Virus genome (UHGV): UHGV-1680239
Length of the DNA stretch: 53,635 nucleotides
DNA from: a virus
Reading direction: 5' to 3' (one strand)
This document shows positions 542-53,635 of this stretch, piece after piece. The notes under the pieces were generated by a model. The model was not told where the DNA came from. It ran no database searches and saw nothing but the letters and a program-made list of their open reading frames with translations. Position numbers and translations under genes: made by a program. Position 1 is the first letter of the stretch; each line of letters starts with the position of its first letter.

Positions 542-722
542 TATAAGATTAACTGAGATATAGCTTACGCAAAGAAGGCAATAAATATAAAGAGAGATGT
601 TCTGAGGTAATTTATTGTTGGTGTTTAAGTTTATTTACAGATAGGTAAGTGCATACCTATATAAAAAAGATAAAATGTGATATAAATCCGCCATCCCGAT
701 TTGACTTTTCATGGAGGAAAAT

Positions 723-1046
723 ATGTCGAACGAGATGGCGGGCGTAACAACAGAGCAAGTTGAGCGCATTGCCGCGATCGTTGCTCGGGAGGTTGTCGGC
801 AAATTAGGTAAAGAGCTACGTGAAGAAATTGGCCAGGAGGTTAACGATCAGCTGAAAACCTACTTTGGTGATATGACCCCGGCGCAACATAGTATTCAAC
901 ACTCCAATCTGGACAAACTCCTTAACCGGTTGGACTCCATCTCAAGTGGGTTCTTTGGCGGCATTGTTTCTAAAATAACGTCGTTCATTATTACTGCACT
1001 GCTTTTGGGGTTAGCCGCGTATGGCGTAAAAAGTGGACTGCAATAA
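723..1046 (+). CDS. small protein with a C-terminal transmembrane anchor (lysis-cassette member; holin/antiholin candidate)
   Basis: GGAGG at 714-718 favours the ATG at 723 over the track start at 711; acidic N-terminus and one C-terminal TM helix. Confidence 0.3.
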   Translation: MSNEMAGVTTEQVERIAAIVAREVVGKLGKELREEIGQEVNDQLKTYFGDMTPAQHSIQHSNLDKLLNRLDSISSGFFGGIVSKITSFIITALLLGLAAYGVKSGLQ

Positions 1047-1059
1047 CAGGAGATCAAGG

Positions 1060-1752
1060 ATGAAGACTCCGAGAGGCATTCGTAATAATAACCCCGGTAA
1101 TCTTGATAAAGGATCACCGTGGCAAGGTCTGGTTGCGAATCCAGACGAACCGCGCTTTTGCACGTTTAAAGACCCTGTTTGGGGGATTCGCGCGCTGGCG
1201 GTGACTCTAATTACCTACCACGATAAACGTCGCGCAAAAGACGGCACAAGTATCGATACCATTCGTGAAGTTATTGAACGCTGGGCACCGCCGAATGAAA
1301 ACAATACTGACGCCTACATTAATGAGGTGTCTAAAGCCGTTGGTGTAACCGCAGACATGATCATCGATCTGCATGATTACGACATCCTTCGACCTTTGGT
1401 TGAGGCAATCATTCGCCACGAGAATGGCCGAGGCCCGCTAAAAACGCTGAACACCTGGTATGCAGCAGAAGTTATTGAGGAAGGTCTGCGTCGAGCTGGC
1501 GTTGTTAAGCCGGTGAAAACCGTGAAGGCTGTTCCTGTAACTAAAGAAACCGCAGGCGCAACTGTTACAGCAGGTATTGGTCTGGCGCAGCTGGCCGATG
1601 TTATGCCGCAGGTTTCCGCTGCTATGGATAAAGCACAAGGTCATATCTCTAGCGGGGATACAGTACGCATCATCTTCGGTATTGCCACTATTGTTGTGGC
1701 AGGATTCATTGCCTGGTCGCAGGTAAGAAAACACCAGAAAGGGATGGTCTAA
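1060..1752 (+). CDS. lysis-module protein, putative muralytic (endolysin-like) enzyme with C-terminal TM helix; family unassigned
   Basis: Position between membrane proteins and spanins; N-terminal RNNNPGNL motif that I associate with phage cell-wall-acting proteins but cannot place in a family; AGGAG RBS 7 nt before ATG 1060. Confidence 0.35.
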   Translation: MKTPRGIRNNNPGNLDKGSPWQGLVANPDEPRFCTFKDPVWGIRALAVTLITYHDKRRAKDGTSIDTIREVIERWAPPNENNTDAYINEVSKAVGVTADMIIDLHDYDILRPLVEAIIRHENGRGPLKTLNTWYAAEVIEEGLRRAGVVKPVKTVKAVPVTKETAGATVTAGIGLAQLADVMPQVSAAMDKAQGHISSGDTVRIIFGIATIVVAGFIAWSQVRKHQKGMV

Positions 1753-1753
1753 T

Positions 1754-2005
1754 ATGCTAGGCAGCCTGATGACAAAGCTAAAAGTTGCTTTGATTACGCT
1801 GGCTGCCGTTCTTTTCGTTCTGGTCGGCGCTTACACGATGGGCGGAAATGCGGCGCGACGAGCAATGGAAGAGAAGGCAAAACAGGAAGACAGGAAACGA
1901 CTTCAAAACACAGTGAAAGTGGTGAATGAGACGAGCAGTAAAATACGTCAGAAAGATGCTTCTGCCGTTCATCGTGAGTTGTATGATAAGTGGGTGCGTC
2001 ATTAA
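1754..2005 (+). CDS. i-spanin (Rz-like)
   Basis: N-terminal TM helix then charged coiled-coil periplasmic domain; immediately upstream of and overlapping a lipoprotein ORF. Confidence 0.55.
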   Translation: MLGSLMTKLKVALITLAAVLFVLVGAYTMGGNAARRAMEEKAKQEDRKRLQNTVKVVNETSSKIRQKDASAVHRELYDKWVRH

Positions 2006-2141
2006 ACCACAAACCACCAGCGTGTTGTTCTGCGATGGGGCTGAGCCTATCTATATCAGCAATAATGATGTAATGACTGAAGAAACCGAACGCCAAATCC
2101 TTTTTCACAATACGATGGGAGAGAGGGTTTGTGGTTGGTGA
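1956..2141 (+). CDS. o-spanin (Rz1-like outer-membrane lipoprotein), overlapping the i-spanin gene in another frame
   Basis: Internal start MLLPFIVSCMISGC gives a signal peptide with lipobox ISG-C; short mature part with a C-terminal Cys; overlapped Rz/Rz1 architecture. Confidence 0.5.
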   Translation: MLLPFIVSCMISGCVIKPQTTSVLFCDGAEPIYISNNDVMTEETERQILFHNTMGERVCGW

Positions 2142-2148
2142 TGTCGAA

Positions 2149-2170
2149 GTTCCCCTCAAATGAGGGGAAC
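2149..2170. terminator. hairpin between convergent genes (candidate bidirectional terminator)
   Basis: GTTCCCCTCAAATGAGGGGAAC palindrome between the Rz1 stop (2141) and the GNAT gene stop (2174). Confidence 0.35.
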
Positions 2171-2173
2171 ACA

Positions 2174-2695
2174 TTATTCTTCGAACAATTTTTCGATAGA
2201 TTTTGTAGGATAGAACAAAGAACGCTCGTTGTTACCAACCAGCTGGATAAAGCCTAAACTTTTATAAAACGCCTTGGCTTTGTCATTTAACGCCTCAACG
2301 AAAAGTCCATGAATGCCTACAGCAAGAGATGCATTGTACACAACGCGCATTGCATGTGTTACAAGCATTGAGCCAAATCCTTGACCTTGAAGAGACTTGT
2401 CCAAAGCCAGCCTACCCAAAGTAACACTTGGAACATTCCGATAAGGAACCTTCTTTTGTTTGCTTCTTGAAGGTAAGGACTCCTTTTCAAAACAACTACC
2501 TGACAAAGTGTAATACCCTAACACTTTTGGCCTTTCTTCTTGAGTGCAAAGCACATAAGCACGAAGAATTTTTCCCTCATGCTGCCTTTTTAAGTGGTTG
2601 ACTAAAAAGGCGTTTAGTGACTCTTCGCCGCAATCAAAACCGTTTAGATCATAATCTTTCTCTCCAGAGAAAATCTCTATCGTCGTATTGCTCAC
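2174..2695 (-). CDS. GNAT-family acetyltransferase toxin (TacT/AtaT/KacT-like)
   Basis: 173 aa; acetyl-CoA-binding motif LQGQGFGSML; lies 7 nt downstream of a DUF1778-type antitoxin gene; GTG start. Confidence 0.8.
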   Translation of the reverse strand: MSNTTIEIFSGEKDYDLNGFDCGEESLNAFLVNHLKRQHEGKILRAYVLCTQEERPKVLGYYTLSGSCFEKESLPSRSKQKKVPYRNVPSVTLGRLALDKSLQGQGFGSMLVTHAMRVVYNASLAVGIHGLFVEALNDKAKAFYKSLGFIQLVGNNERSLFYPTKSIEKLFEE

Positions 2696-2702
2696 GAGTA
2701 AA

Positions 2703-2972
2703 CTACTCCATGCTTTTCAGACGATTAGCAGCTCGTTTCAGCTTATCGTTCGGTGCCGGAGGATTGCTTATAGCATCCATAACCAGATTCCAGGACTCTT
2801 CACTCAGAACCAGTCTTCGATGTTGTTCTATAACCTTTACGGCACGTTCAGATGCACTGCTAACCATAAACTGGGTTATGCTCTGGTTAGACATTGCGGC
2901 AGCTTCCTCGATGATGCTTTTATCGTCATCGGTTAATCTCAAATCGATGCGCTGCTTTTTCAGTGCGGACAT
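2703..2972 (-). CDS. DUF1778-type ribbon-helix-helix antitoxin (TacA-like)
   Basis: MSALKKQRIDLRLTDDDKSIIEEAAA... is typical of this antitoxin family; AGGGGGT RBS before the internal ATG (track ORF extends to 3044). Confidence 0.75.
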   Translation of the reverse strand: MSALKKQRIDLRLTDDDKSIIEEAAAMSNQSITQFMVSSASERAVKVIEQHRRLVLSEESWNLVMDAISNPPAPNDKLKRAANRLKSME

Positions 2973-3291
2973 TTGTACCCCCTGATGGCCTTTGATGTAG
3001 GAAGACCATCGCTCTCCTCTATTCAAACTGAGTTTTCGACTCAAAGATTACTTTAAAGGGCTATAGCCCATTATGTATGCGTCAACAAATTATGTACGGC
3101 ATAACACCGTACTTGTAATATAGAGGTCATTGTTACTTTTTTCAACAGACAAATACAAGCTATGATTGCCAATTGTTAATCACAACCTACCATTTAACCT
3201 TTACACCGCAGCCGTAGGCATTTAGGCTATATCACATATAAGAAAACAAGTTGTTTCAGACGATAATTATATACGCAAAGGGAACTCTCCA

Positions 3292-3960
3292 ATGACCAAG
3301 ATCTTTGTGGTTGGCGGCACAAAGGGCGGGCCTGGCAAATCCACCGTTGCCCAGCAAATTGCCGTTTGCCTGAAAGTCAAAAAGAAGAAGAAGGTTTATA
3401 TTACCGATATAGATATTCAGCGCACGACAACGAGCTGGTGTGAAGACCGTCGACAGAACGAAGACCTTGAGCTGATTCCTTTTGCATACGTTCAGGATGA
3501 CATCATTAAGCACCTAAAATCGCTTCAGGGTAGAGCTGAGTTTGTAGTGGTAGATGCTGGTGGCTTCGACTCCGAAATTCAGCGACAAGCGATGCTGATG
3601 GCTGACGTTATCATTATCCCGCTGCGTCCTAAGCGTCGTGATTTGAAATCTCTGCGTGACATCGATCCTATTATCGACAATGTTCGTAATGTAAACGATA
3701 AAGTGAAGGTCCGCGCGGTCATGAACCAGTGCCCGGCTTTGCCATCACAAGTGTCTCGCATTCTGGCGGCTAAAGAGATTGTTGAGACGTTTGGAATCGA
3801 GTCTGCGCCAGTCAATCTATATAACCGCAACGTCTATGATGATGCGGAAGAGTCTGGTCGTTCTATCTTTGAAATGACCGGTAGCGAGCGCGACAAAAAG
3901 GCGGAAGCCGAGTTTGAAGAATTTGTAGATTATCTGTTGAGTCTGGAGGAAGAAGAATAA
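3292..3960 (+). CDS. parA: ParA/Soj-family partition ATPase
   Basis: Deviant Walker A GGTKGGPGKST; 222 aa; followed by a small RHH-protein gene with overlapping stop/start. Confidence 0.85.
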   Translation: MTKIFVVGGTKGGPGKSTVAQQIAVCLKVKKKKKVYITDIDIQRTTTSWCEDRRQNEDLELIPFAYVQDDIIKHLKSLQGRAEFVVVDAGGFDSEIQRQAMLMADVIIIPLRPKRRDLKSLRDIDPIIDNVRNVNDKVKVRAVMNQCPALPSQVSRILAAKEIVETFGIESAPVNLYNRNVYDDAEESGRSIFEMTGSERDKKAEAEFEEFVDYLLSLEEEE

Positions 3961-4319
3961 TGTCCATGAAAATGGGTGACCTAGCAAAGCGCAAAGAGCC
4001 TGATGCACCGGCTAAGAACACAACTCCTTTGCGCCAACCAGTCAGACCACAGGGACGCCCGACTCGTGGCAAAGAGAAAATTAAAAGCCGCACAATGTCA
4101 CTGGAGGACGAATACTTCGAACTGCTGGAGATGATGAAGTTCATCCCTCGCTTCGAGAAGTTCACTCGTTCTGACGTGATTCGAGCAGCCATTTTCCATC
4201 TGGCAGAGAAGTCACCGCAGGAAATCGAGGACATCGTGAAATTGAATGAGGCGATCACCGCTGCCGATGTCACGATGCGTACCGATGAAATCAAACGAGA
4301 GTTGATGAAGAAAGGTTAA
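3960..4319 (+). CDS. small ribbon-helix-helix protein, probable centromere-binding partition partner (ParG-like)
   Basis: 119 aa, basic disordered N-terminus, RHH-like SLEDEYFELLEMMKFIPRF; translationally coupled to parA. Confidence 0.5.
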   Translation: MSMKMGDLAKRKEPDAPAKNTTPLRQPVRPQGRPTRGKEKIKSRTMSLEDEYFELLEMMKFIPRFEKFTRSDVIRAAIFHLAEKSPQEIEDIVKLNEAITAADVTMRTDEIKRELMKKG

Positions 4320-4322
4320 AAA

Positions 4323-4357
4323 TCATGCATTGGCGCGTACATTGCGCCAATGCATGA
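4323..4357. terminator. palindromic hairpin between convergent genes
   Basis: 13-bp perfect arms TCATGCATTGGCG / CGCCAATGCATGA; on the minus strand it is followed by a T-run, so it likely terminates the 4372..5139 gene. Confidence 0.4.
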
Positions 4358-4371
4358 CTACAGTGTCAGCT

Positions 4372-5139
4372 TTATGCCGCGCTAACACTATGTTCAGTCC
4401 TAACCACCCCAACCTTCACAAAAGGGCTACCGTAGCTTGGTGGCTTCTTGATTAATTTGCCTACATACAGTTTTCTAATATGCTCATCGGCTATTCTGCC
4501 AACAAATTCATAACGTTTTGTGTCGGGGCCAAGAGCTATATCCCTTGTAAAGTACTGCTGAGAACCGGCTTTGACCCAGCATTCAATCTGATAAACTTCC
4601 ATTATCAGCCCACCATATGTAGCGTAGGCATATTTGAGATTCTCGTCTCTTGGAACCTTTGCCCATACGCCACGCGTAGCTTCATATAATGCCAGAGCGG
4701 ACATTCCTGACTTGTAGGTGCTGTTTAGCAGGAAGGCAAGACCGGCGTGCTCAGGAGCAATTTCAGTTTCCTCTTGCAGCACTAAGTGATGGTAGGCGTC
4801 CAGTGATATTCTGCCCATCATGGAACCACTTCCTCGAACCTTATTCGTAAGCTCTCCGACCCCCATAAGGTCGATGCATGTCGCCTCAACAAGTTTGGCT
4901 GTGGTTTCATCCATACCATGACGAAGAATATCTATGCCTAATTTTTTATTAGCCAAAAGTTCTTTGATCCGCATGGATTTGGGAGAGTCATCGGGATACT
5001 TGATGTGATCGAGACAACGAGTCGATTTGCCTTTTCCTATGTAAAACGGTCTTTTCATCTTGTCTTCTGTATCATAGAGACAGTAAACATAGTATTTAGC
5101 CTTATCCAATGATCTCGCGTATACCGATAAATCGTCCAT
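4372..5139 (-). CDS. GIY-YIG nuclease-domain protein with uncharacterised C-terminal domain
   Basis: N-terminal YYVYCLYD...RPFYIGKGKSTR matches the GIY-(10-11)-YIG motif with the downstream Arg; about 150 aa of unassigned C-terminus. Confidence 0.55.
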   Translation of the reverse strand: MDDLSVYARSLDKAKYYVYCLYDTEDKMKRPFYIGKGKSTRCLDHIKYPDDSPKSMRIKELLANKKLGIDILRHGMDETTAKLVEATCIDLMGVGELTNKVRGSGSMMGRISLDAYHHLVLQEETEIAPEHAGLAFLLNSTYKSGMSALALYEATRGVWAKVPRDENLKYAYATYGGLIMEVYQIECWVKAGSQQYFTRDIALGPDTKRYEFVGRIADEHIRKLYVGKLIKKPPSYGSPFVKVGVVRTEHSVSAA

Positions 5140-5250
5140 TATTGCATCTCTTAGCTACTGACTAATGCGTTCTATTTTACACATAAGTTTTTAATCAATT
5201 TAACAGGCTCAAAGTGTAGAGCTTCTGGGCGTCTAAGACGACAAGTTATG

Positions 5251-5305
5251 CCTGCTTCTGTATATATAAATAATAAGTAACTTATTAAATATATACGGAA
5301 GCAGG
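5251..5305. repeat. 55-bp near-perfect palindrome with AT-rich centre (copy 1 of 2)
   Basis: CCTGCTTCTGTATATAT...ATATACGGAAGCAGG; the same element, with shared left flank, recurs at 51889-51947. Confidence 0.7.
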
Positions 5306-5413
5306 TCTTTTAAAAAGACACCACCAGAACAACTCCCTTCCGTTTCCACTTCCAAAAACTGCCACCAGTCGCTATCATCCGCTCATTGTGATAAGTAAGT
5401 AACTACCTACCAG

Positions 5414-6163
5414 GTGAGCCACATGAGCCAAATCTTTTTCGATACCATCGACAACGACCAGTACGACTTCATGACAGAGTGGAATACCGCTGTTATGGAC
5501 AAGTGGGTCGCTGAAAACATTGGTTTGTCGCGCTGTAAAGACGAGGCTGAACTCTTCGAGACGAAGTGGTTTGATTACCGCGACATGCATCCTCTCATGG
5601 CCACCTGTCTTTTTACGGAGGCATACAAACGTCAGTACTCAAATATCATGCTGACGCACGGTCGCGAACACTTTGAAACAGCTCCGTTCACCACCGGGTT
5701 AAAACGCCTGCCTTATCAGGAGTTGTCGACTGCCAATAAAACGTCGCTATGGAAAGCACGCCAGTTTGCGGATCGCTATTGCTGCTCATACGACTACTTT
5801 ATCTCCACCGTTCTTTCCGCAGCTGCACGACGGCTGTGGGACAAGCTGCCGCGCCCACAGCATTTGTGGCAGCCAGAACTGATTGAGATATTTGAAGAGA
5901 AATTAGCCAGACGCGCAACAACCCGTCTGGATGACTCTCTTGTTAGCTTTAAGCATATGGGAGACATGCAGTTCAACCCGATTCAGGAAAGCTATTTTGA
6001 GTGGATTCTAGAGCGTTTACGCACCATCCCCCGCAGCAAGCGCATACGCGCAATTTTCTCCGCTATCTGGCTAATGGAAATCGTTCCAGAGCGCCTTATT
6101 TCCGCCCACTTTCCAGAAGAACTGGAAGAAGCACGGCGGTTTATTGATCCCCTATCTAATTAA
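5414..6163 (+). CDS. hypothetical protein
   Basis: 249-aa ORF with no motif I recognise; GTG at 5414 or ATG at 5423. Confidence 0.5.
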   Translation: MSHMSQIFFDTIDNDQYDFMTEWNTAVMDKWVAENIGLSRCKDEAELFETKWFDYRDMHPLMATCLFTEAYKRQYSNIMLTHGREHFETAPFTTGLKRLPYQELSTANKTSLWKARQFADRYCCSYDYFISTVLSAAARRLWDKLPRPQHLWQPELIEIFEEKLARRATTRLDDSLVSFKHMGDMQFNPIQESYFEWILERLRTIPRSKRIRAIFSAIWLMEIVPERLISAHFPEELEEARRFIDPLSN

Positions 6164-6206
6164 CTAATACTAGAAAACAATTTGTTTAAAAAACAAAGGA
6201 AAGCAC

Positions 6207-7547
6207 ATGACCGAACTTTGCCATACAGGACGCGGGCTGTCCGAAGAGTTTGATGAAGATTTTCAGAACAGATTGACGGCCTATTTTTGTCGTGATCACG
6301 AGTTTCTTACTCGTGCTGGAGATCTGGTTGTACCTAACCAATTTGCCAATGCGGCCAATGCCATATTGGTTAATATGGTTTCGGGCTATTACCGTATGTA
6401 CAAGAGCGCGCCCTCTTCATCTGCGATTCTGGATATGCTTAAGCGTGCGAAACGCGATAAGACTATCCGTGAGGAACTATTCGCCGATGTTGTTGCTGCG
6501 TTTAAGCGCATCCTTGCAGAAAAATTGTCTGATACCTCGTACATGGTTGACCAGGTATCAACCTTCGCAAAAAGCGTAGCGTTTGATGATGCTCTGATTA
6601 AGGCTGCTGAACTGAAAGAGAAGGGCGACTTTCAGGGGGCGATGGCAATCATGGCCAAGGTTCAGCAGATTGGATCGAACGAAGCGACCGGAATCTATGA
6701 CTACTACACCTCCGCAAGTGAGCGATTGAAAGCGCGTGAATATGAGGCTTCAGAGGAGTATGTGCCAAACAGCATTACAACTGGACTCCCTCTGCTCGAT
6801 AGGTTGCTGTACCAAAAAGGCTGGGCGAAGCGTGAAATGGTGCTCTTCATGGGGTTCGCTAAATCCGGTAAATCGACCGCAATGGGTGAGTTTTCCATAA
6901 ACGCAACGCTTGCTGGCTACAATGTTCTGTATCTCTCGCTGGAGGTTCACACCACCATTTTATCCGACCGTTTTGATGCAAGATTGTCGGAGACAGAAAT
7001 GTCCAAGCTGGTGGAACGGCGCGATGAGGTTCATCGTAAGTTGGCAGAGTTGGGAGCCACGAAGGGGATTGGTAGTTTGTGGGTTGTTGAGCGTCCGTCA
7101 GGAAGTATGTCACCGGCAGATCTGGATCGTATGCTTAACAGCATGAAAGCCAATGGCATGGTGCCTGACATGGTTGTTGTCGACTATGCAGATTTGATGC
7201 GTGCCAGTTATGACCTTCGTGATGATCGCGCCAACATACGTAGTATCTATACCGACTTACGTGCTCTTTATGACAAACACAACGTTGCTGGTATCACGGC
7301 ATCGCAGACAAACCGTGAAGGTGGCGCGTCAGAAGTTGCCACAATGATGCACGCTGCCGACAACATCGAAAAAGTACGTATTGCTGACCTGGTAATAACG
7401 ATCAACAAAACCGAAGAAGAAGAAGCGAAAGGAGAGGCTCGTCTCTACTTTGCTGGTTCACGTAACCAGCAGGGAGGGATCAGCATTCGCGTTAAACAAA
7501 ACCTCGAACAAATGCGCTTCATTGAGCGAATCTTAGACGTTACCTAA
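6207..7547 (+). CDS. DnaB-like replicative DNA helicase (RecA-fold)
   Basis: Walker A GFAKSGKST in the C-terminal half, Walker B-like MVVVDYADLM; immediately upstream of the primase gene. Confidence 0.7.
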   Translation: MTELCHTGRGLSEEFDEDFQNRLTAYFCRDHEFLTRAGDLVVPNQFANAANAILVNMVSGYYRMYKSAPSSSAILDMLKRAKRDKTIREELFADVVAAFKRILAEKLSDTSYMVDQVSTFAKSVAFDDALIKAAELKEKGDFQGAMAIMAKVQQIGSNEATGIYDYYTSASERLKAREYEASEEYVPNSITTGLPLLDRLLYQKGWAKREMVLFMGFAKSGKSTAMGEFSINATLAGYNVLYLSLEVHTTILSDRFDARLSETEMSKLVERRDEVHRKLAELGATKGIGSLWVVERPSGSMSPADLDRMLNSMKANGMVPDMVVVDYADLMRASYDLRDDRANIRSIYTDLRALYDKHNVAGITASQTNREGGASEVATMMHAADNIEKVRIADLVITINKTEEEEAKGEARLYFAGSRNQQGGISIRVKQNLEQMRFIERILDVT

Positions 7548-7552
7548 AAAAT

Positions 7553-7577
7553 AAGCGTGGAGAACGCCTCCACGCTT
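7553..7577 (+). terminator. hairpin after the helicase gene (terminator or attenuator)
   Basis: 10-bp perfect stem AAGCGTGGAG/CTCCACGCTT with 5-nt loop, then a weak T-run. Confidence 0.4.
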
Positions 7578-7628
7578 GATTCATTGGTGAAACAACTTTT
7601 CTTTTGCCAAACCACAAAAGAAAAACAC

Positions 7629-8807: not shown

Positions 8808-8885
8808 TAACAATCACCTTTAAAATAAGTAGATGATTACTTATCTTTCTGTGAGAATACTTTCATCTGTTAGCTAGGAGTTGGT

Positions 8886-9662: not shown

Positions 9663-9717
9663 TCTCTCCGCGCGTCGTTTTTTACGCAAATAACGATAGG
9701 TAAGTACAAGATTATTT

Positions 9718-10200
9718 ATGGCGGTAGTTGTGAAAGCTGATTTGTCAAAAATCCCTTCTATTTCAGGAAATAACGGTTATTCACTTCGTTGTGAGGAAGT
9801 AAAGATAAACGGTGAGTCGGCATATTGCAGCTATTCCGTTTGCCAGCACACCATTCTTGCCTTCAAAGAAAACCGTCTTCCTCGAACTTCTTTCCAGTCG
9901 TGCGCAACCGCTATTAAAGCAGGCAAATGCAAGGCGTTAAAAATGATGGTTGAAGAGATTCGTAAAGGAGAATCTCTGTATTTCGAAGATATGACCGCGC
10001 TCATTAAGGAGGTTGAAGAACGGAATAAACAAGCCAGAACTATAAAACGAAAACGTGACAGTGTAACGATTAATAGCATGGTTAAGAAGAGCACCACATC
10101 ACAAACAGCGATCACTGACGTGTATGCGGCGTTGCTTGAAGAAACAACAAAAGAAACACATGAGCAAATCGATCAACATATGGAGGCAAAACAACAATGA
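9718..10200 (+). CDS. hypothetical protein (Cys-rich N-terminal half, basic C-terminus)
   Basis: 160-aa ORF; stop overlaps the ligase start (ATGA). Confidence 0.5.
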   Translation: MAVVVKADLSKIPSISGNNGYSLRCEEVKINGESAYCSYSVCQHTILAFKENRLPRTSFQSCATAIKAGKCKALKMMVEEIRKGESLYFEDMTALIKEVEERNKQARTIKRKRDSVTINSMVKKSTTSQTAITDVYAALLEETTKETHEQIDQHMEAKQQ

Positions 10201-12167: not shown

Positions 12168-12556
12168 AAACATCATGATAAGTATTTACTTACTTATCTT
12201 TTATGTATAAGATGACTTTGTTTTCGTTGAGACGCGACTGTTTGAACTTAAATACAAGTGCAAACGAAGAAGTCTATCTGGCAGTAGCCTAATAAGCCAA
12301 ACACCAGCGAGGTCAGTTTCCAGCCTCGTTACCGAAATGGGACACACTGAGCGAGTGTGATTGCAGAACGCAGGAGGGAACATTCATGTTCCCTCCGATG
12401 AAGTAACAGAATGGGCGGTTGGTATATTTTCAACTCCATATGACTCCCGGATTCTTAGCCACTGACCGCCCATCCTGTTACGTCATTTTGTTCAATTATG
12501 TCGTTTATACTGGGTTAAAAAGCGGCGACGTAGCCCGGCTGGTATGGTTAGCCAGC

Positions 12557-13020: not shown

Positions 13021-13025
13021 ATTTA

Positions 13026-13112: not shown

Positions 13113-13116
13113 AATT

Positions 13117-13599: not shown

Positions 13600-13601
13600 G
13601 A

Positions 13602-15117: not shown

Positions 15118-15126
15118 GGTTGAACG

Positions 15127-15710: not shown

Positions 15711-16814
15711 ATGAAAAATAGCTTTGACAGAGCACGCGCAGCGGAGAACACCTCAAAAGAGGCGATTGAGTATCTCGAAAGAGCATCTCAAATGCAGGCA
15801 GTTATGATCTCCCAGGTCAGCAATGACATGAGATTCTCGGACGCATTCATGTTATTCACTCGCTTATCTCTGCTGATAACCAGACGTCGGCCAGAGATCG
15901 CTGTTCATTGTATTTTGATACATGTTTTGCCGCACATTGCCGATGTAAAAGTAAGTGACATTAATAGGTTCATGGTGAACCAACTGGTCAACCCACTAAT
16001 ACTGGATGGCAAAATTGTTATGGGCCGCCGCGTTTTCTCTCTGATGAAGCAGTTCCTTAGCTGGTGTGCCTTCCAGGGGATGATCGACGTATCACCGTTA
16101 AACGATATGTCACTAAACAAAGTTGCCGGTGGCGCAAAGCCCACACCTCGCGAGCGGAAGCTGACCGACGCAGAGGTATGGGTGTTCTGGAATATCTGGG
16201 ACTACTTCAATGTGTGCGCAGGTACAAAATGGGCGGCCAGGCTATGTCTTGTATCCGCAAGACGACCTGATGAAGTACTGCGGGCTAAAAAAAGTGAGTT
16301 CAATCTTAAGCGTGGGGTTTGGAATCAAGGCAAAAGAAACAAGTCAGCACGTGAGCATTCGCTGCCTTTAAGCACATTAATGCGCACATGCATTGAAGAG
16401 TTGTTCGAATACGGTAAAGATAGCCAGTGGCTCGTTCCTTCGAATAAAAAAATCGGGAAAGACCTTCCTATGTCTAAAGTGGCAATAGCCCAGGCATTAC
16501 GTCGTATTCTGGAACGACCAGAACTGATGGAGCTTGAGCCATTTACACCCCGAGATTTGCGCCGTACTGCGCGTAGTTACTTCCCAGCATTAGGCATAAG
16601 CCAGGAGGTATCACGTAAAATCATGAACCACAGTCTTGAGGGGATAGATCGGGTCTACGACCGGCACGATTATATGGACGAGATGCGAGACGCCTTAGAA
16701 AGTTTCTCGACGTACATCGCATCAATCGTAGAGCAACCGGATTTAGACGAAATTGACCACAAATTTAAGGGAGATCGTCTATCAACAGAGCTTATTCGTG
16801 TAAATTTTTCATAG
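15711..16814 (+). CDS. tyrosine site-specific recombinase (integrase or resolvase)
   Basis: C-terminal catalytic signature PRDLRRTARS ... NHSLEG ... VYDRHDY (R..R, H..R, Y). Confidence 0.8.
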   Translation: MKNSFDRARAAENTSKEAIEYLERASQMQAVMISQVSNDMRFSDAFMLFTRLSLLITRRRPEIAVHCILIHVLPHIADVKVSDINRFMVNQLVNPLILDGKIVMGRRVFSLMKQFLSWCAFQGMIDVSPLNDMSLNKVAGGAKPTPRERKLTDAEVWVFWNIWDYFNVCAGTKWAARLCLVSARRPDEVLRAKKSEFNLKRGVWNQGKRNKSAREHSLPLSTLMRTCIEELFEYGKDSQWLVPSNKKIGKDLPMSKVAIAQALRRILERPELMELEPFTPRDLRRTARSYFPALGISQEVSRKIMNHSLEGIDRVYDRHDYMDEMRDALESFSTYIASIVEQPDLDEIDHKFKGDRLSTELIRVNFS

Positions 16815-17195
16815 AGACTTTATGGCCTCAACAACCTTTTGTGATGCGCCTTTCTCTTTACCGAATCGCTCGTTATATGCAGCAAGAACCTGTTTTTCGT
16901 CCTCGTTAAGAGGAGCAGTGCCTTCTTTGTATAAAAATGCTGCGAGTTCGGGTTGGCGTTCTTCCAGCACCATCATCATAAGACGACTTGGCTCAATACC
17001 CAGTGCCAGCGCCAGCGGACGAACCTTATCGATAGGCAAAGGAATTTTGCCGCTTTTAATTAAAGAAAGGTTGTTGGCGTTTTTATACCCAATTGTTTTG
17101 GCTATCTGGGCCTGGCTCATAGGTGAGGATTCAATCAACCCTGCGATAAAAGCAGCGTAGCGACTTTCTATAAATTCAATCTTGTTATCAGACAT
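16809..17195 (-). CDS. XRE-family helix-turn-helix transcriptional regulator (repressor-like)
   Basis: N-terminal HTH SQAQIAKTIGYKNANNLSLIKSGK; convergent with and overlapping the recombinase 3' end; divergent from a small ORF. Confidence 0.75.
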   Translation of the reverse strand: MSDNKIEFIESRYAAFIAGLIESSPMSQAQIAKTIGYKNANNLSLIKSGKIPLPIDKVRPLALALGIEPSRLMMMVLEERQPELAAFLYKEGTAPLNEDEKQVLAAYNERFGKEKGASQKVVEAIKSL

Positions 17196-17446
17196 GGTTA
17201 CAACCTTTGCGCGTTCAATTCTCTCTGGTAAGTGCTTACTGATATTACATCAAAGGTTAGGGTTGTAAAGCTATTATCATTTTTTTCGATAGGCACTTAA
17301 AAGACCGGTTAAAGGCCATTGCACGGAGAAAAATTAGCCCAAAATAGGTAAGAAAATCAACTTGCATATGATATGAATGTATTCAGTATTGATACAAATT
17401 TTAGTAGTATTCCTTACCATAGTATAAGTTAGAATGGATTGATTGA

Positions 17447-17757: not shown

Positions 17758-19866
17758 ATGTCTAAAAAACGTTCCATCAAAGAGGTTCAGGACTTCCGTG
17801 ACAGTGTAAAACGAGTAGTCGCTCTCCTTTCAGGTAAAAACATCCCTGTTGCAGAACGAGGGGACGACGCTTATGTACGCTATAACGATGATGGAGAGCC
17901 AATTCTCGTAAACATCCCATCAATCCCGGATAACGCAACACCGGCATTGATGAATGCTGTGCGCGGATTTCTCGATCATGAGGTTGCTCACATTTTGTTT
18001 ACCGATATTCGTGTGTCCAACAAAATGAGAGAAAAAGGACGCGTTCCTTCCTGGTCGCTATGGAATGCCTTAGAAGACGTGTTCATCGAGCGAAAAATGG
18101 GTCAGGTCTTTAACGGAACAAGACGTAATCTGATGGCAACTCAGCGCCTTATAATCGAAAAAGTCTTTAAACCAAAGGCTTCAGAGGCTATTGCTTATTG
18201 TGGCAAAGATCAGCGCGCGCTTTTTCTAAACTTCTTTCTCTGTCCGGTTGTAAGAGCCTGGGATGGCCAAGCACCGTTCGTAGATTTCATGGATGAATAT
18301 TGGCCTGTCATTGAGAAACCAATTTCATTATTAAAAGAACATGGTATCGATGTGGCCGTGCGTAACATGTCTTGCACCGAGGATTGTGTAAAGGTGGCTG
18401 CAACCATAGCTAAGATCCTCAAAGACACTGAAAGTGAAAGCAAAGGTAAGGAGTCAGCTCCGGGAAAAACTTCCGATCCTTCAGACGCTGACCAGACGGA
18501 TGCCTCTGGAGAAAATAATGAAGATAACGAAGATCATGAGACATCCTCAGCGTTAGATAATCACAAATCTATCAAACCAGAATCACACAGTAAGCACAAA
18601 CATGATAATAACGACAGTGATGATTCAGATAATTCTGAATCATCAGAGACAATATTCAATGATACAGAAAATGATAAAGAGGTATCAGATTCTGGTGCTT
18701 CTGATAACGCGGCGTCAGAATCATTTACCACTGACCACGAAAAAAGAAAATCGACAGAAGACGGCTCTTCAGACATACCAACTCCGTCAAAAATGAGTCT
18801 GGAAGAGGCTTTAGAGGAGTTGGATAGCATGGAAGATGAAGTCGGAGGCATGACAGAAGATGCGCTATCCGAAACGATTAAAAGCGAGTTAACAGAAAGC
18901 TCGAAAAGCGAATACAGGCCATACAATCGCTCATACGACTTCATCGGCTCGATTGATCAGGCAGAAGCCCATATCAAACGGCTTATTAAAACATTCTCCG
19001 ATATTGATTTAGGTGGATATCCAATCAGCCGTTATCGCATCGTTCCTGAAGGCAACCAACTCTTCGACAAATATATTGAAAAGCACCTTTCGTCAGGTGT
19101 TTCGTCGACGCTGGCAAAAGACCTGGAACGTGCAATAGCAAGCAGAAACAGAGTTCAGTTTATACCTGGCCAGCGTCGGGGGCGCATTCATGGTTCAAGT
19201 ATCTACAGATTAACAATGAATGATGATCGCGTGTTTCGTAAAAAAGAAGAATCTAAAGCCGTTAACGCCTGTGTTCAACAAGTGATTGATTTATCTGGTT
19301 CAATGAGTGGCGAAACGATAAAACTAGCTCTTGCAAGTGCATATACCATCGCCGATGCACTTGATCGAATAAATGTTCCCAACATTATCACCGGCTTCAC
19401 TACATTTGGCAGTCATATGGCAGCAGGAGAACTTAAGGCTATCAAATATGAGTTCTCTCGCTTTGAATCTTTAATGCTACCTATCATCAAAAATTGGAAT
19501 GAAAAAGCAAATTCTCGCGAAGTTCGCTCACGTATGGGGTGCGTAGGCTACACATTCCCACTTCTTAATAACGTGGATGGTGAAAGCATAGCCAGCCTTG
19601 CATCGTTATTTTCCGGTCGCATGGAGGACAGGAAGATCATGCTTGTTCTGAGCGATGGCGAGCCGTGGGCTGTTGGGAGAGGTTTTGACGCTCATTTGCG
19701 TTCGGTTGCGAAGCAAATTGAAACGCAGACTGACATTGATTTGATGGCAATTGGCATCATGACTGACGCACCGGAGAGATTTTACTCAAATCATGCCCTG
19801 GTAACGAGCGTTGATAGTCTTGGTTCATCTGTAGTTACTGAACTATCTCGTATCATTTTGAAGTAA
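17758..19866 (+). CDS. CobT-like von Willebrand factor A (vWA) domain protein with long acidic Ser/Asp/Glu-rich linker
   Basis: MIDAS motif DLSGSMSG in the C-terminal domain; low-complexity acidic region over about 18420-18900; followed by an AAA+ ATPase gene. Confidence 0.65.
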   Translation: MSKKRSIKEVQDFRDSVKRVVALLSGKNIPVAERGDDAYVRYNDDGEPILVNIPSIPDNATPALMNAVRGFLDHEVAHILFTDIRVSNKMREKGRVPSWSLWNALEDVFIERKMGQVFNGTRRNLMATQRLIIEKVFKPKASEAIAYCGKDQRALFLNFFLCPVVRAWDGQAPFVDFMDEYWPVIEKPISLLKEHGIDVAVRNMSCTEDCVKVAATIAKILKDTESESKGKESAPGKTSDPSDADQTDASGENNEDNEDHETSSALDNHKSIKPESHSKHKHDNNDSDDSDNSESSETIFNDTENDKEVSDSGASDNAASESFTTDHEKRKSTEDGSSDIPTPSKMSLEEALEELDSMEDEVGGMTEDALSETIKSELTESSKSEYRPYNRSYDFIGSIDQAEAHIKRLIKTFSDIDLGGYPISRYRIVPEGNQLFDKYIEKHLSSGVSSTLAKDLERAIASRNRVQFIPGQRRGRIHGSSIYRLTMNDDRVFRKKEESKAVNACVQQVIDLSGSMSGETIKLALASAYTIADALDRINVPNIITGFTTFGSHMAAGELKAIKYEFSRFESLMLPIIKNWNEKANSREVRSRMGCVGYTFPLLNNVDGESIASLASLFSGRMEDRKIMLVLSDGEPWAVGRGFDAHLRSVAKQIETQTDIDLMAIGIMTDAPERFYSNHALVTSVDSLGSSVVTELSRIILK

Positions 19867-19961
19867 TTAAAACAGCCTTAATGATAAGTAACTACTTACC
19901 ATAGTTAATGGTATATTTATATAAGAACTTGAACGCTCATTAGAGAACAAAGGAAAAGCGC

Positions 19962-26461: not shown

Positions 26462-26578
26462 TTTTTGATAGATAATAAGTAAGTACTGATCTATCATTTA
26501 ACAGCTCGAAAGAGCCACGAATGAACGAAAGCCCAACGCGCATAGCGCCATCGGCCAAATCACAACAAGGAGAAACAC

Positions 26579-31249: not shown

Positions 31250-31312
31250 ATCTCTTGAAAATATATAAGCACTTACTTATTATTTTCGCATAACAACCAC
31301 ATAGGAAAACAC

Positions 31313-33195: not shown

Positions 33196-33234
33196 GTTTA
33201 CAGTAAAATTTATATAAGTTAGTATCTACCTATC

Positions 33235-36891: not shown

Positions 36892-37145
36892 CCCTCCAGA
36901 TCGTATATTGGCGTAGATAGAATCTACGCCCCCTCAAAATAGCTCTCATAGCGTTCTACAGTGATCCTGTCTTATTTTTAGTCATACAGACAAGCAAAGT
37001 TGCGCCACGATAAATAGGTATATACTTACTTATAAATTTTGTATATTAAGGCGCTCGTTTCATTCCTAACATACCGTTATGCATAGTTGTTTACCTCCTC
37101 ATTGCTCTTAGAATTTGTATCAAAATAACCACAAAGGAAAAACAC

Positions 37146-41694: not shown

Positions 41695-41723
41695 TTGATA
41701 GGTAAGTGCTTATCTATTAATAT
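41695..41723 (+). promoter_or_regulatory. sigma70-type promoter (TTGATA-17 bp-TAATAT) whose spacer is the recurrent palindromic motif
   Basis: TTGATA at 41695-41700, spacer GGTAAGTGCTTATCTAT, TAATAT at 41718-41723; a 7-bp hairpin (41724-41746) lies before the nrdA ATG. Confidence 0.5.
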
Positions 41724-41762
41724 GGGCCACTAAATATAGTGGCCCTCTTTATTTGGTGATAC

Positions 41763-46335: not shown

Positions 46336-46361
46336 TGGTGGCCTATGGCCACCATTTTTTT
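46336..46361 (+). terminator. rho-independent terminator
   Basis: TGGTGGCC-TAT-GGCCACCA followed by TTTTTTT. Confidence 0.6.
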
Positions 46362-46438
46362 ATCTGTCTGGTCTTGTTCTCTCAATGAATGTAAACTCAC
46401 ATGATGAATAAGTAATTACTTATCTTTGTGAGGTTTTT

Positions 46439-51090: not shown

Positions 51091-51273
51091 CGTTCCCCTA
51101 CTGAAAATAAAGCCCATAGAGAGCTTTATATTGCTGGGTAAGCCAATCACATACCCAGCACCACAAAAACGCGCCAGAGAGCTTCTCGTTTGCATTTCTG
51201 GCGCGTTTTATTTGATTGCCAGACATAAAATCAAATGCAAAAATAGGTAATCACTTACCTATCGAGAAAGAAG

Positions 51274-51867
51274 ATGATTGCAGCCGAAAAAATCAAACAG
51301 CGAAAGCGCGACAACTCTCTTCGTGACCTCTGGAGAACACCTGACTGGCTGTTTTCTGCCATTCAACGTTATCTTGGGGTGACATTTGATGTTGACGTTG
51401 CCTGCAACAAGGACAATGCAAAGCTGCCTAATTTCATAGGCGTTGAGCGTGATGCTTTGAAATCTGAATGGGGACAGCCAGGTACAATTGCCTTCCTCAA
51501 TCCCCCCTACTCCAAAATCTCCCCCTGGATTGATGCGGCTATACGTGAGCAGGCTCGCGGAGTTACAACAGTGATGCTAATTCCTCAATCCCTAGATACA
51601 AAGTGGTATGAGCGTGCAACAGAGTGTGCGAATGAGACGATTATTCTGTCTGGTGGCCGCGTAGCGTTTGTCGAGCCTGACGTCAATCTGGGTCAGGTAG
51701 AAGTAAACATCAACCCAGGTGGCAGTATGCTCGTTGTTTTTCGAGGATTCTGTCAGGACGCTGGGCACTCTATAAGCAAGATCCCTTTGGACGTCATGAA
51801 AAGTCTGGGAGGGTATGATCCTGCGAATGTGATCAGGAAAAAAAGACCATCAAAGAAGGCTGCTTAG
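51274..51867 (+). CDS. phage-type DNA N6-adenine methyltransferase (Dam-like)
   Basis: Catalytic NPPY within FLNPPYS; N-terminal WRTPDWLF typical of small phage Dam-family enzymes. Confidence 0.8.
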   Translation: MIAAEKIKQRKRDNSLRDLWRTPDWLFSAIQRYLGVTFDVDVACNKDNAKLPNFIGVERDALKSEWGQPGTIAFLNPPYSKISPWIDAAIREQARGVTTVMLIPQSLDTKWYERATECANETIILSGGRVAFVEPDVNLGQVEVNINPGGSMLVVFRGFCQDAGHSISKIPLDVMKSLGGYDPANVIRKKRPSKKAA

Positions 51868-51888
51868 TTTGTTCTGGCGTCTGTAATT

Positions 51889-51947
51889 AGCCTGCTTCTG
51901 TATATATAAATAACTACATATTAATTATTAATATACGGAAGCAGGCT
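51889..51947. repeat. palindromic element, copy 2 of 2
   Basis: AGCCTGCTTCTGTATATATAAATAA...ATATACGGAAGCAGGCT; shares stem and left flank (CTGG(G)CGTCT) with the element at 5251-5305. Confidence 0.7.
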
Positions 51948-52028
51948 GTTTTGTATCAGAGACTCCAGACCTGAACATCACTACAGAATCCACTAGAACC
52001 CCTTCCCAGACGCTTTAAAATCGATTTT

Positions 52029-52283
52029 ATGAATCACTTTAAGGAAACTAACATGTCATACCCGACTAATGTCGTTGCGCTCGTAGAGAGCGATTTTCTG
52101 GCCCAGGCCCGTGAAATGATGAAAGATCGCGAGCAGGCTTTCAACTTGTACGAATGGGCAATTAAGTGCTTGCATCTTGGGGAGCATCGCGAACTTGTTG
52201 AACAGCTTTTAGGTGAGTTGATTAACGAGGTGTTTGCCTTGAATGTTCAACTACATGGTCGAGAAAATAATCAATCGAAATGA
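52029..52283 (+). CDS. hypothetical small protein
   Basis: 84-aa ORF (internal ATG at 52053 is also possible). Confidence 0.4.
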   Translation: MNHFKETNMSYPTNVVALVESDFLAQAREMMKDREQAFNLYEWAIKCLHLGEHRELVEQLLGELINEVFALNVQLHGRENNQSK

Positions 52284-52868
52284 TAGATAAGTACAAACTA
52301 TTCATAAAGTGAATTGTAAGTGCTAAGATCTGATAGTTTCCAGTCGTAGACTGGAGACTCGACCTGATGGGTGGGGGATAGCGTCACTGGCGTCAGGTTT
52401 AAAAAAGCTCACTACCAGCGTAGAACCGGCACCGTTTAGGGGTTGGGGAAGGGGGAACCAAAGTGGGCAGAGAGAAGGGTCACTTTATGATTGTCGAGTC
52501 TGGAGTGTTTAGAGAGGTTGAATCCAGTGCTCCCCTTCATAAAGTGTGGGAAGATCTCGGTTCTGGGGTGCTGTCATCCATAACTTCCCAAGTCTAAGCT
52601 GGCAGTAGACTTAGGCCATAACTTTTCAGGTTATGAAACGACCAGGTTGGTGAGGGATTTTTATACTCACCTCCCTGGGAGAGTATTACCTGAAAAGACA
52701 ACCTCTCACTTCGTTCGAGGTGAACTTCACTCACTTCGTTCGTTCAGTTCAGGTTTATAAAAACCTGTTCTGGGAAGTAATTTGTTTATTTTAATAATTA
52801 TTAACACGCACGCGTGTGCGCACGCGCGAGGAAAAAAAATCGGCGCGGCGCTTGATTCAGGAGTTTAT
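52284..52868 (+). other. ORF-free, GC-richer structured region (candidate non-coding RNA locus)
   Basis: No ORF of 60 aa or more on either strand across about 580 bp; several local and long-range complementarities, G-tracts, and an alternating purine-pyrimidine palindrome. Confidence 0.3.
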
Positions 52869-53462
52869 ATGACGACGAAGACACCAGCCCGATCGCAAGC
52901 AAAAACTCGCAAAAAAGCCAAAAACAAAAATTCTCCCCGCACCAATTACACAACGCCTGTCGTAGAGTTCAATCCCCAGCTTAAAACCGTGAAAATCTTC
53001 AGTGATGGATCTTGCCTTAAAAATCCGGGTGGCCCGGGCGGTTACGGTATCGTTCTTCAGTATCGTGGAGAGGAACGCGAGTTCTCAGATGGTTTTCATA
53101 GCACCACCAATAACCGCATGGAGATGATGGGGGCACTTATCGGGCTGGAGCGTTTGAAATATCCATGCAACGTTATTTTACACTCTGATAGCCAGTATCT
53201 GAAAAACGGCATGACACTGTGGATGAAATGGTGGAAACGCAATGGATGGATGACTTCTGACAAAAAACCGGTAAAGAATGTTGATCTGTGGAAGCGTCTG
53301 GATGAGGCTGCAAGTCGACATAATGTTCGCTGGAAGTGGGTTAAAGGTCACGCCGGGCATCGTGAAAATGAAATATGTGATCGACTCGCGAAGATCGCAG
53401 CTTTTTCCGCAGCAGATATGCCTCACAAGAAAGATATTGGTTTTGTTTACAACAAACGGTAG
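52869..53462 (+). CDS. rnhA: ribonuclease HI with Lys-rich N-terminal extension
   Basis: [37 protein letters not shown] and [16 protein letters not shown] match RNase HI catalytic blocks; AGGAG RBS before ATG 52869 (track start 52782 is too far upstream). Confidence 0.85.
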
Positions 53463-53635
53463 GTAAGTGTTTACCTATCATTTTAAATCATGTATCTTAT
53501 CGGCGTCAGGATGACAATGTGTCGGTAAGACACAGTTCCAGGATGGAACGAGAAAGGCGGGGGGGGGGTTTCCCCCCCCAAACTTTTTTCCCCCGGGGGG
53601 GGGGGCCACACCCCCAGCAAACAACTCTTCCTTCC

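Follow-up and report, generated by a model that had tools for sequence, protein, structure and literature searches.

A recurrent palindrome in an SSU5-like phage-plasmid as candidate operator of an element-encoded XRE-type repressor

Palindromic sites in the virus genome UHGV-1680239

We analysed a 53,635-nt stretch of DNA of the virus genome UHGV-1680239 (hereafter the window), in which a palindrome recurs in the gaps between genes. By megablast of positions 17000-25000, the window was 96.5% identical to Escherichia phage Cyrano (pLF82, OV696614) and ~80% identical to Salmonella phage SSU5 and Klebsiella phage-plasmids; judged by these sequence matches it is an SSU5-like (SSU5/pHCM2-type) phage-plasmid, and it matches roughly 25.4-79.8 kb of Cyrano. 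Its genes run from the 3' end of a tail-fibre gene through a lysis cassette, KacAT, ParA, helicase-primase, ligase, a tRNA cluster and integrase to a 128-aa 'putative repressor', CobT/S, the Pol III alpha subunit, HicAB and UvsY/SSB/RecA-like genes, and end with RepA, SbcCD, NrdAB, ThyX, Dam and RNase H. For comparison we used the whole genomes of Cyrano and Klebsiella pJN2-26 (Kp), the first 100 kb of SSU5, and 40-kb segments of Yersinia pestis pMT1 and of two Acinetobacter relatives. Klebsiella variicola p_AC125 was left out as a fourth lineage, its record being poorly annotated and probably frameshifted.

The palindrome has the form (AT)GATARGTAAGT followed directly by ACTTACYTATC(AT), with two abutting 11-bp arms, GATAGGTAAGT and ACTTACCTATC. 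A symmetric extension of ~2 bp per side gives ATGATA...TATCAT and a site length of 22-26 bp. An earlier reading of the window made from the sequence alone (the sequence-only reading) had placed a spacer of two to four bases (N2-4) between the arms, and the pattern written in that way had 0 exact matches. In the information profile of 66 sites from three genomes, T3, A4, G6, T7, A8 and their mirror positions were near-invariant and the centre AGTACT was conserved.

The sites were far more numerous than expected by chance. The 22-mer GATAGGTAAGTACTTACCTATC was found in the window at 7 positions with up to four mismatches and at 15 with up to six, whereas first-order Markov simulations of the window gave 0.0 and 0.1, respectively; the left arm alone, with at most one mismatch, occurred 12 times against 1.96 expected. 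An iterated, symmetrised position weight matrix (PWM) gave 22 window positions of at least 15 bits against a null mean of 0.07. We count 13 strong copies (at least 20 bits) and ~5 weaker ones in the window, where ~0.1 would be expected by chance. The recurrence noticed in the sequence-only reading was thus borne out at essentially every coordinate listed there. Among its 16 instances, 12 are full sites (640, 5390, 8824, 12177, 26474, 31260, 33213, 37013, 41697, 46403, 51242 and 53458), 9695 and 52282 have a good left arm and a degenerate right one, 19883 is weak, and 17228-17242 holds only a 13-bp core; a conserved site within cobT (18552-18573) had been overlooked. The sites, which as palindromes are given without a strand, are listed below with their PWM scores.

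640..661: palindrome GATAGGTAAGTGCATACCTATA, 26.4 bits; non-coding, in the tail-fibre/holin gap with the holin start 49 nt on; orthologues at Cyrano 26656, SSU5 27473 and Kp 69441
5390..5411: palindrome GATAAGTAAGTAACTACCTACC, 23.6 bits; abuts a ribosome-binding site, with the first gene of the helicase-primase operon 11 nt on; kept in SSU5 and Kp; the Acinetobacter plasmids have variant cores in the equivalent gaps upstream in the helicase region
8824..8845: palindrome AATAAGTAGATGATTACTTATC, 21.8 bits; 16 nt past the primase stop codon and followed by the extended -10-like TGTGAGAAT; a footprint in otherwise diverged flanks (invariant columns, 15/22 in the motif vs 14/56 in the flank)
9695..9716: weak site, 17.3 bits; left arm GATAGGTAAGT perfect, right arm degenerate, start codon 1 nt on; weak orthologues at Cyrano 35606 and Kp 80737
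12177..12198: palindrome GATAAGTATTTACTTACTTATC, 27.8 bits; 9 nt past a stop codon; conserved in SSU5 and Kp
17227..17239: 13-bp core copy GGTAAGTGCTTAC; directly downstream of the -10 hexamer of the predicted promoter of the XRE gene (the 'putative repressor')
18552..18573: cobT-internal site GTTAGATAATCACAAATCTATC, 18.2 bits; corresponding cobT position also matched at Cyrano 43931, SSU5 43660 and Kp 91931 (24.9 bits)
19883..19904: weak site GATAAGTAACTACTTACCATAG, 16.8 bits, in the cobT-cobS gap; this gap has a site in every relative examined (SSU5 and Kp, and a lineage-specific variant in both Acinetobacter plasmids)
26474..26495: palindrome AATAAGTAAGTACTGATCTATC, 25.1 bits; between uvsY and a gp32-like SSB gene, nested in the longer palindrome TGATAGAT...ATCTATCA; overlaps a promoter-like TAGATA-17-TATCAT; 19/22 columns invariant
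31260..31281: palindrome AATATATAAGCACTTACTTATT, 24.2 bits; occupies the spacer of TTGAAA-17-TATTAT (31255-31283, a 10/12 match) and extends into both of its hexamers, directly after the strong terminator of the RecA-like gene (31225-31245, 9-bp stem); the orthologous promoter in SSU5 is TTGAAA-17-TATCAT
33213..33234: palindrome TATAAGTTAGTATCTACCTATC, 23.2 bits; last base adjoins an ATG (33235); 20/22 columns invariant
37013..37034: palindrome AATAGGTATATACTTACTTATA, 24.7 bits; sbcD 111 nt downstream; invariant columns 19/22 in the motif vs 46/140 in the flank; Acinetobacter variants in the same gap
41697..41718: palindrome GATAGGTAAGTGCTTATCTATT, 28.0 bits; within the nrdA promoter TTGATA-17-TAATAT (41695-41723); conserved in SSU5 and Kp
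46403..46424: palindrome GATGAATAAGTAATTACTTATC, 23.6 bits; thyX start 14 nt on, ~50 nt past a strong terminator (46336-46354); a footprint
51242..51263: palindrome AATAGGTAATCACTTACCTATC, 27.7 bits; dam start 10 nt on; conserved in SSU5 and Kp
52282..52303: half site GATAGATAAGTACAAACTATTC, 20.0 bits; overlaps a stop codon; orthologues at Cyrano 78476 and SSU5 78708
53458..53479: palindrome GGTAGGTAAGTGTTTACCTATC, 24.3 bits; overlaps the RNase H stop codon; orthologues strongly conserved (29.4 bits in SSU5, 29.4 bits in Kp)

By our own gene map the window is 86% coding, and the 13 strong sites all lie outside coding sequence, but for overlaps of no more than 5 bp with stop codons (~0.14^13 by a simple binomial), in agreement with the intergenic location proposed earlier. 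The genes that follow strong sites serve lysis, replication, recombination and nucleotide metabolism, and no strong site in the window adjoins KacAT, ParA/RelE, HicAB, RepA or integrase. The distance from site to start codon ranges from 0 to 111 nt. The copy within cobT may be an internal operator or roadblock, or else an internal promoter.

Where clear sigma-70 promoters could be recognised, the site fills the 17-bp spacer and overlaps one or both hexamers. The nrdA example of the sequence-only reading was reproduced, with TTGATA at 41695, a 17-bp spacer and TAATAT ending at 41723, the -35 hexamer sharing the first four bases of the motif; at the 3' end of the portal gene of the relatives, a promoter TTGAAA-17-TATGAT/TATCAT likewise surrounds the site. 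Its wider statement that the sites often lie in promoter spacers held for 4-5 of the 13 strong sites and not for the remainder. Several sites end 0-14 nt before a start codon (33235, dam, 5423 and thyX) or lie within the 26-bp terL/portal gap of the relatives, and therefore cannot be stand-alone promoters. A fixed sigma-70 geometry for all sites was tried and rejected, as a PWM scan gave no preferred -10 beyond the palindrome's own hexamer, which scored equally on both strands.

A subset of sites is followed after 3-7 nt by TGTGAGAAT, TGTAAGAAT or TGTGAGGTT (window 8846-8860 and 46425-46436; Cyrano 84641-84654). These look like extended -10 elements (TGn plus hexamer), in which case the palindrome would cover the -35 region.

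Conservation of the sites and their mode of recognition

The sites recur throughout the family. PWM matches of at least 14 bits numbered 28 in Cyrano, 26 in SSU5 and 27 in Kp, the two or three weakest in each being the loops of long hairpins that are described below, and six sites were found within the SSU5-like part of Y. pestis pMT1. In the relatives, sites also occupy gaps of the virion module, namely between terL and portal, at the 3' end of portal, after the capsid gene, between tail genes and before the holin gene. In three-way alignments of 11 orthologous gaps the motif stood out as identical sequence between flanks that had diverged, the clearest examples being those at sbcD, thyX and dam and the one after the primase gene. 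Invariant columns made up 187 of 242 (77%) within the motif and 410 of 862 (48%) in the non-coding flanks (Fisher p=6e-17). In the two Acinetobacter lineages, the gaps orthologous to those before sbcD, before cobS and in the helicase-primase region carry the altered cores GTCAGTACTGAC and GTAAGCGCTTAC, which take the form ..AGTCAGTACTGACT.. in one lineage and ..AGTAAGCGCTTACT.. in the other.

A dyad in short gaps could be read either as DNA or as an RNA hairpin, the latter acting as a processing site, stabiliser, terminator or translational operator in polycistronic transcripts. Such a role would suit sites that lie between co-directional genes, several of them against ribosome-binding sites or start codons, with stems of 8-12 bp that fold at -7 to -8 kcal/mol (z-scores of -3 to -5). 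At the mirrored positions, however, Watson-Crick counts equalled the independence expectation at every variable pair: positions 5/18 gave 31 Watson-Crick pairs against 28.7 expected, and the 14 A-C mismatches among 63 sites were at chance frequency, so that individual bases are conserved and not their pairing. From this lack of covariation between the arms we conclude that the palindrome is probably read as duplex DNA by a symmetric dimer. The stems are also weak and AT-rich, most lack a U-tract, and no Rfam family matched the palindrome, only tRNAs reaching gathering scores in the window; on these grounds we rejected the RNA reading, which we regard as very improbable. Recognition by a host transcription factor appears more improbable still. 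The palindrome resembles some enterobacterial boxes in part, its GATAA ends being like those of Fur boxes and TACCTAT like NarL heptamers. When the consensus 32-mer was searched by BLAST (E<=10) in 5,426 complete Escherichia coli genomes, though, it matched 840 places on plasmids of 218 genomes and no near-consensus copy was found on their chromosomes, and two different cores occur in elements of a single host genus, Acinetobacter. A host factor was rejected for these two reasons, the second of which argues for an element-encoded, co-evolving binder.

The palindromic sites exist, are under selection and specific to the element, act as two independent half-sites, and overlap promoter cores. The palindrome is very probably the binding site of an element-encoded dimeric regulator. 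This was one of two roles offered by the sequence-only reading, and it is supported by the dyad symmetry, the independent arms, the footprints, the lack of chromosomal copies, cores that track the recognition helix of the candidate protein (see below) and the overlap with promoters, the binding itself being predicted.

The XRE protein as candidate binder

The candidate that we favour is the 'putative repressor' beside the integrase gene:

16809..17195, minus strand: 128-aa XRE/Cro-C1-type helix-turn-helix (HTH) protein, homologue of CYRAN_45, assigned by Pfam/PHROG and predicted fold

It matched PHROG 8 ('transcriptional regulator') with E=1.3e-11. The N-terminal domain of its AF2 model (pLDDT 78) gave Foldseek matches to C.BclI, C.AhdI, HigA, the 434 repressor and SinR with a TM to target of ~0.7 and weak E-values (>=0.01); a sequence search against the PDB gave no match, and no S24 peptidase domain was found by Pfam search. 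The protein is 100% identical to CYRAN_45 of Cyrano, which is reported to be expressed in Cyrano lysogens (PMC9928086 Table 1). Among the genes listed there as lysogen-expressed, CYRAN_45 was the only one with a recognisable DNA-binding domain in our domain searches, and the genes downstream of sites are nearly all missing from the list, the exception being CYRAN_81 after the half site at Cyrano 78476 (PMC9928086).

Homologues of the XRE protein were found only on contigs of ~100-116 kb from Enterobacteriaceae, and on ~1,000 PLSDB plasmids, including hundreds from Klebsiella, Salmonella, Enterobacter and Yersinia; the gene adjoins an integrase gene in all PLSDB records examined among those listed. 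The enteric proteins are 55-70% identical overall but hardly vary over residues 36-62 (GYKNxNNLSLIKSGKIPLPxDKVRPLA), a stretch that includes the predicted recognition helix; this matches the invariant enteric motif. In the two Acinetobacter lineages the recognition helices differ and so do the motif cores. That core differences track helix differences fits an element-encoded, co-evolving binder.

The XRE gene has a predicted minus-strand promoter (TTTACA, 16 bp, TAATAT, spanning 17269 to 17242) with the core GGTAAGTGCTTAC over the likely start site, in a block, TGGTAAGTRCTTACYGATATTACA, that is conserved in E. coli, Yersinia and Klebsiella. Both Acinetobacter plasmids have a half copy or partial core of their lineage-specific sequence upstream of the XRE gene. 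The core at this promoter probably serves autoregulation.

With moderate confidence, we read the palindrome as a dispersed operator/roadblock network for the 128-aa XRE repressor. Protein binding, the XRE protein as that binder and repression are all inferred, binding and repression from the promoter-core positions of the sites, the lysogen expression of CYRAN_45 and the helix/motif correspondence in three lineages. In the plasmid (lysogenic) state, XRE dimers would occupy ~25-28 sites over the ~108-kb genome, including the 13 strong sites of the window. At sites inside sigma-70 promoters, a protein bound to the promoter core must exclude RNA polymerase, so the repressor would block initiation there; where the gap is very short, or where the site directly adjoins a ribosome-binding site, it would probably obstruct read-through transcription as a roadblock. 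About 80 kb of phage genes, for lysis, replication, recombination, nucleotide metabolism and the virion, would thereby be silent, while plasmid-maintenance and toxin-antitoxin genes, which have no sites, would stay on, and the core over the likely XRE start site would provide negative autoregulation.

Several observations weigh against this XRE network. The Pfam match to HTH_19 (E=7.8e-4, 19.7 bits) lies under the 30.2-bit gathering score, and only three lineages connect the helix with the motif, lineages that differ in everything else too. The immunity region has one core copy plus half-sites and not the usual cluster of strong operators. Other small conserved proteins of unknown function are possible binders, namely those of the 70-aa gene divergent from the XRE gene and the 71-aa gene at 11516, or the ParB_N proteins encoded outside the window. 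Most sites are without a recognisable -35 hexamer, so that many may not be stand-alone promoters, and the -10-like TAT(C/T)AT in both arms at a fixed offset can also be taken for part of an activator-dependent promoter element.

This last point leads to the main rival, in which the palindrome replaces the -35 element of lytic promoters and is bound by an element-encoded activator beside a built-in -10 (TATCAT), much as in P1 late promoters (Lpa, 9-bp inverted repeat at ~-22) or T4 MotA boxes. The shortage of -35 hexamers would then be explained; with TAT(C/T)AT at motif positions 19-24 the dyad is centred near -20, similar to the P1 geometry as annotated, several sites come after terminators, at points where transcription has to begin anew, and sites precede both DNA-metabolism and virion genes. 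That Cyrano lysogens keep nearly all site-linked genes off (PMC9928086) would likewise agree with it, the activator then being absent. Yet the -10-like hexamer recurs equally on the mirror arm, which makes it part of the palindrome and not directional, and the start-codon distances of 0-111 nt leave no room for a start site and leader at thyX, dam, 33235, 5423 and terL/portal. Where the -35 and -10 are good, their 17-bp spacer is optimal and no activator is needed, and a single motif for early-type and late genes argues against an activator of one temporal class. Neither an Lpa homologue nor, in the enteric elements, a sigma factor was found. We consider the activator unlikely, and the promoter class read by an element-encoded factor, which was the second role offered by the sequence-only reading, is the weaker of its two proposals on these same grounds, the geometry being unfixed and the ribosome-binding site at several sites being too near for a promoter to fit in between. 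A repressor or silencer operator bound by a protein other than XRE seems more doubtful again. The candidates are a KorB-like ParB_N protein (CYRAN_119/120), the product of the 70-aa divergent gene and the 71-aa protein of 11516-11731. One Cyrano site (105106-105127) lies 17 bp upstream of the ParB_N gene, and ParB-family proteins can run plasmid-wide palindromic operator networks, as IncP KorB does; SSU5, moreover, keeps all its sites without an XRE gene. Against these binders, the ParB_N and small-protein genes are missing from the Cyrano lysogen-expressed list (PMC9928086), and the small proteins have no detectable DNA-binding domain. Of the two binders proposed in the sequence-only reading, the XRE protein (16809-17195) accordingly stands as a good candidate and the 71-aa protein (11516-11731), with no detectable DNA-binding domain and no place among the reported Cyrano lysogen-expressed genes (PMC9928086), does not.

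The retention of sites in SSU5 turned out to say little on the binder. At about 41.8-42.8 kb SSU5 lacks the whole glutaredoxin-integrase-XRE-70aa module found at 13.6-17.7 kb of the window. None of 822 matching plasmids was collinear with SSU5 across the module junction, and the closest relatives of SSU5, 98-99% identical in the left flank, match it as two separate places, at least one of them (NZ_CP090193) having the XRE gene beside integrase; the SSU5 deletion is therefore recent. The loss agrees with the module being the immunity region. SSU5 would fit a lytic derivative that arose by its recent deletion, and its retained sites, being uninformative after so recent a loss, were discarded as evidence excluding XRE as the binder.

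A gene annotated as a sigma-70 family sigma factor lies between cobS and dnaE in the Acinetobacter relatives (15101-15766 in one and 14900-15583 in the other, with 27% mutual identity). It had no tblastn homologue in the window, Cyrano, SSU5 or Klebsiella, and an element-encoded sigma factor as the reader of the sites was rejected, this gene being confined to the Acinetobacter relatives.

Known systems compared and other elements of the window

A close parallel is the C1 network of P1, likewise a temperate phage kept as a plasmid, in which one repressor-type site recurs at many lytic promoters, overlapping the -35 or -10, and at the gene of the repressor itself; in the half of the annotated P1 record that we covered, C1 operators are given at rlf, dmt, ban, 26, ppp, pmgR, pmgT, lpa and c1. 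The dispersal of operators is shared, with 13 strong sites in the window and 23-28 PWM matches (>=14 bits) per relative. P1 operators, in contrast, are 17-bp asymmetric sites for a 283-aa C1, whereas the site here is a 22-26 bp palindrome, and P1 has a separate late activator, Lpa, whereas here the same palindrome also stands between virion genes. The late promoters read by Lpa also have short inverted repeats just upstream of a -10-like hexamer, without a -35 and before many phage genes, and a single box serves two divergent promoters, LP26 and LPpmgL. Their boxes (~AAGTGACTT), however, are unrelated in sequence to the palindrome; the sites here also precede helicase-primase, SSB, sbcD, nrdA, thyX and dam and are not late-only, and at several of them the start-codon distance is incompatible with a fixed promoter. 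By tblastn no homologue of C1 was found in the window, Cyrano, SSU5, Kp or one Acinetobacter relative (best E=6.5), nor one of Lpa (best E=1.1), and homology to either was rejected.

In mycobacteriophage L5 and other Cluster A phages, the repressor gp71 binds 20-30 sites genome-wide. Some of these act as operators within promoters, and most, placed in short gaps between genes of early and late operons, are stoperators at which elongation is blocked; from lineage to lineage the motif changes together with the repressor (PMC6550527). The sites here agree in number and placement, including those in the terL/portal, capsid and tail gaps of the relatives, and by likeness to L5 the non-promoter sites would probably act as roadblocks. 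The L5 sites differ in being 13-14 bp long without dyad symmetry, oriented with transcription and bound non-cooperatively, whereas ours are 22-26 bp palindromes with symmetric flanks and a presumed dimer. As a further step, which we put forward as a tentative possibility, the whole lytic genome of the SSU5/pHCM2/pMT1 family might be kept under stoperator-like silencing with a symmetric operator, peptidase-less XRE dimers acting at ~27 palindromes and as roadblocks at the non-promoter sites within virion and replication operons. The predicted N-terminal fold of the XRE protein and the dyad-symmetric operator, with half-site cores ~12 bp apart, recall repressors of the Cro/C1 type (434, P22 c2 and lambda cI; C-proteins; HigA). 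Those classically use 3-6 operators in the immunity region, as opposed to ~27 genome-wide here, and the XRE protein lacks the S24 peptidase domain for RecA-mediated self-cleavage. On the IncP plasmid RK2, the dimeric repressors KorA and KorB are plasmid-encoded and coordinate the whole backbone through palindromic operators at many promoters. The RK2 regulons differ in controlling conjugative-plasmid functions from 7 and 12 sites, and KorB is a ParB-family protein.

Dispersed operator networks as an idea are already established (P1, L5 and RK2), and the present finding is specific to a family and adds no new principle. In topic searches we found no study of an SSU5 operator or of SSU5 regulation and no description of the control of the lysis/lysogeny switch in SSU5-like elements, and in a sequence search the motif appeared in no relevant paper. 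SSU5-like phage-plasmids are common, 218 of the 5,426 complete E. coli genomes having plasmids that match the motif consensus; the family includes Salmonella Typhi pHCM2 and the Y. pestis pMT1 backbone, and members can carry resistance genes. An operator with a candidate repressor gives a testable map of the lytic regulon, would make immunity and incompatibility groups predictable from sequence, and offers a handle for inducing or curing these elements. Were the stoperator-like network true, its operator code would define immunity groups across elements of Enterobacteriaceae and Acinetobacter, and it would be the first genome-wide roadblock network described outside actinobacteriophages, operating also in Y. 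pestis pMT1 and S. Typhi pHCM2.

Several other features were noticed. Sequences resembling sigma-70 promoters are depleted in window 1-20000 (16 vs 32.8 +/- 5.8 in shuffles) and more mildly in the rest of the window (23 vs 27.2 and 16 vs 20.0), perhaps because spurious promoters are selected against where the genome is silenced. Downstream of the 12177 site, the second-highest-scoring in the window, a conserved TATAAG precedes the tRNA cluster at 12946-13599 (Asn-GTT, Tyr-GTA, Thr-TGT and Ser-TGA), which may be part of the same regulon; the tRNA complement differs in Cyrano (Asn, Thr and Ser) and SSU5 (Asn only).

Two long, near-perfect hairpins at 5250-5306 and 51888-51948 have the form CCTGCTTCTGTATATATAAATAA-[loop]-...ATATATACGGAAGCAGG followed by T-rich sequence, and fold at -30.2 and -27.8 kcal/mol (z-scores of -9.1 and -6.1), with a motif-like core, TAAGTAACTTA, in the loop. 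One lies upstream of the replication operon and the other after dam. An exact seed found one to two copies per relative (Cyrano 78093 and 108351, SSU5 33467 and 78313, Kp 15279), and the Cyrano copy at 108351 lies where the linear record ends on the right, immediately ahead of terS, which is found at the start of the record. Possible roles of these hairpins are those of a strong terminator, a signal for single-strand initiation or packaging, or a composite operator. Between the nrdA promoter/operator and its ATG, a palindrome GGGCCACTAAATATAGTGGCCC with a T-run (41724-41745) is conserved in SSU5 and Klebsiella and also scores as a terminator/attenuator. We take it to be similar to an NrdR box (acaCwAtATaTwGtgt), and the phage nrdAB genes may be under additional control by host NrdR.

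Gene content differs from that of Cyrano at two places in the window. At 4372-5139 on the minus strand, a 255-aa open reading frame (ORF) stands in place of CYRAN_30, and at 14509-15537 two plus-strand ORFs with the lengths and position of Klebsiella pJN226_0104/0105 stand in place of CYRAN_43, which is very highly expressed in Cyrano lysogens (PMC9928086). Outside the window, the family encodes a protein (CYRAN_114 of Cyrano, 25781-26302) that is homologous over its full length to FljA, the 'repressor of phase-1 flagellin' (Pfam PF03614, E=1e-80). In Salmonella, FljA binds mRNA and represses translation, and the homologue may be a moron directed at the host. Past the last copy of the motif, a G10-TTT-C8 hairpin with a T-run (53559-53579) at the right end of the window forms a terminator-like stem of unusual GC purity.

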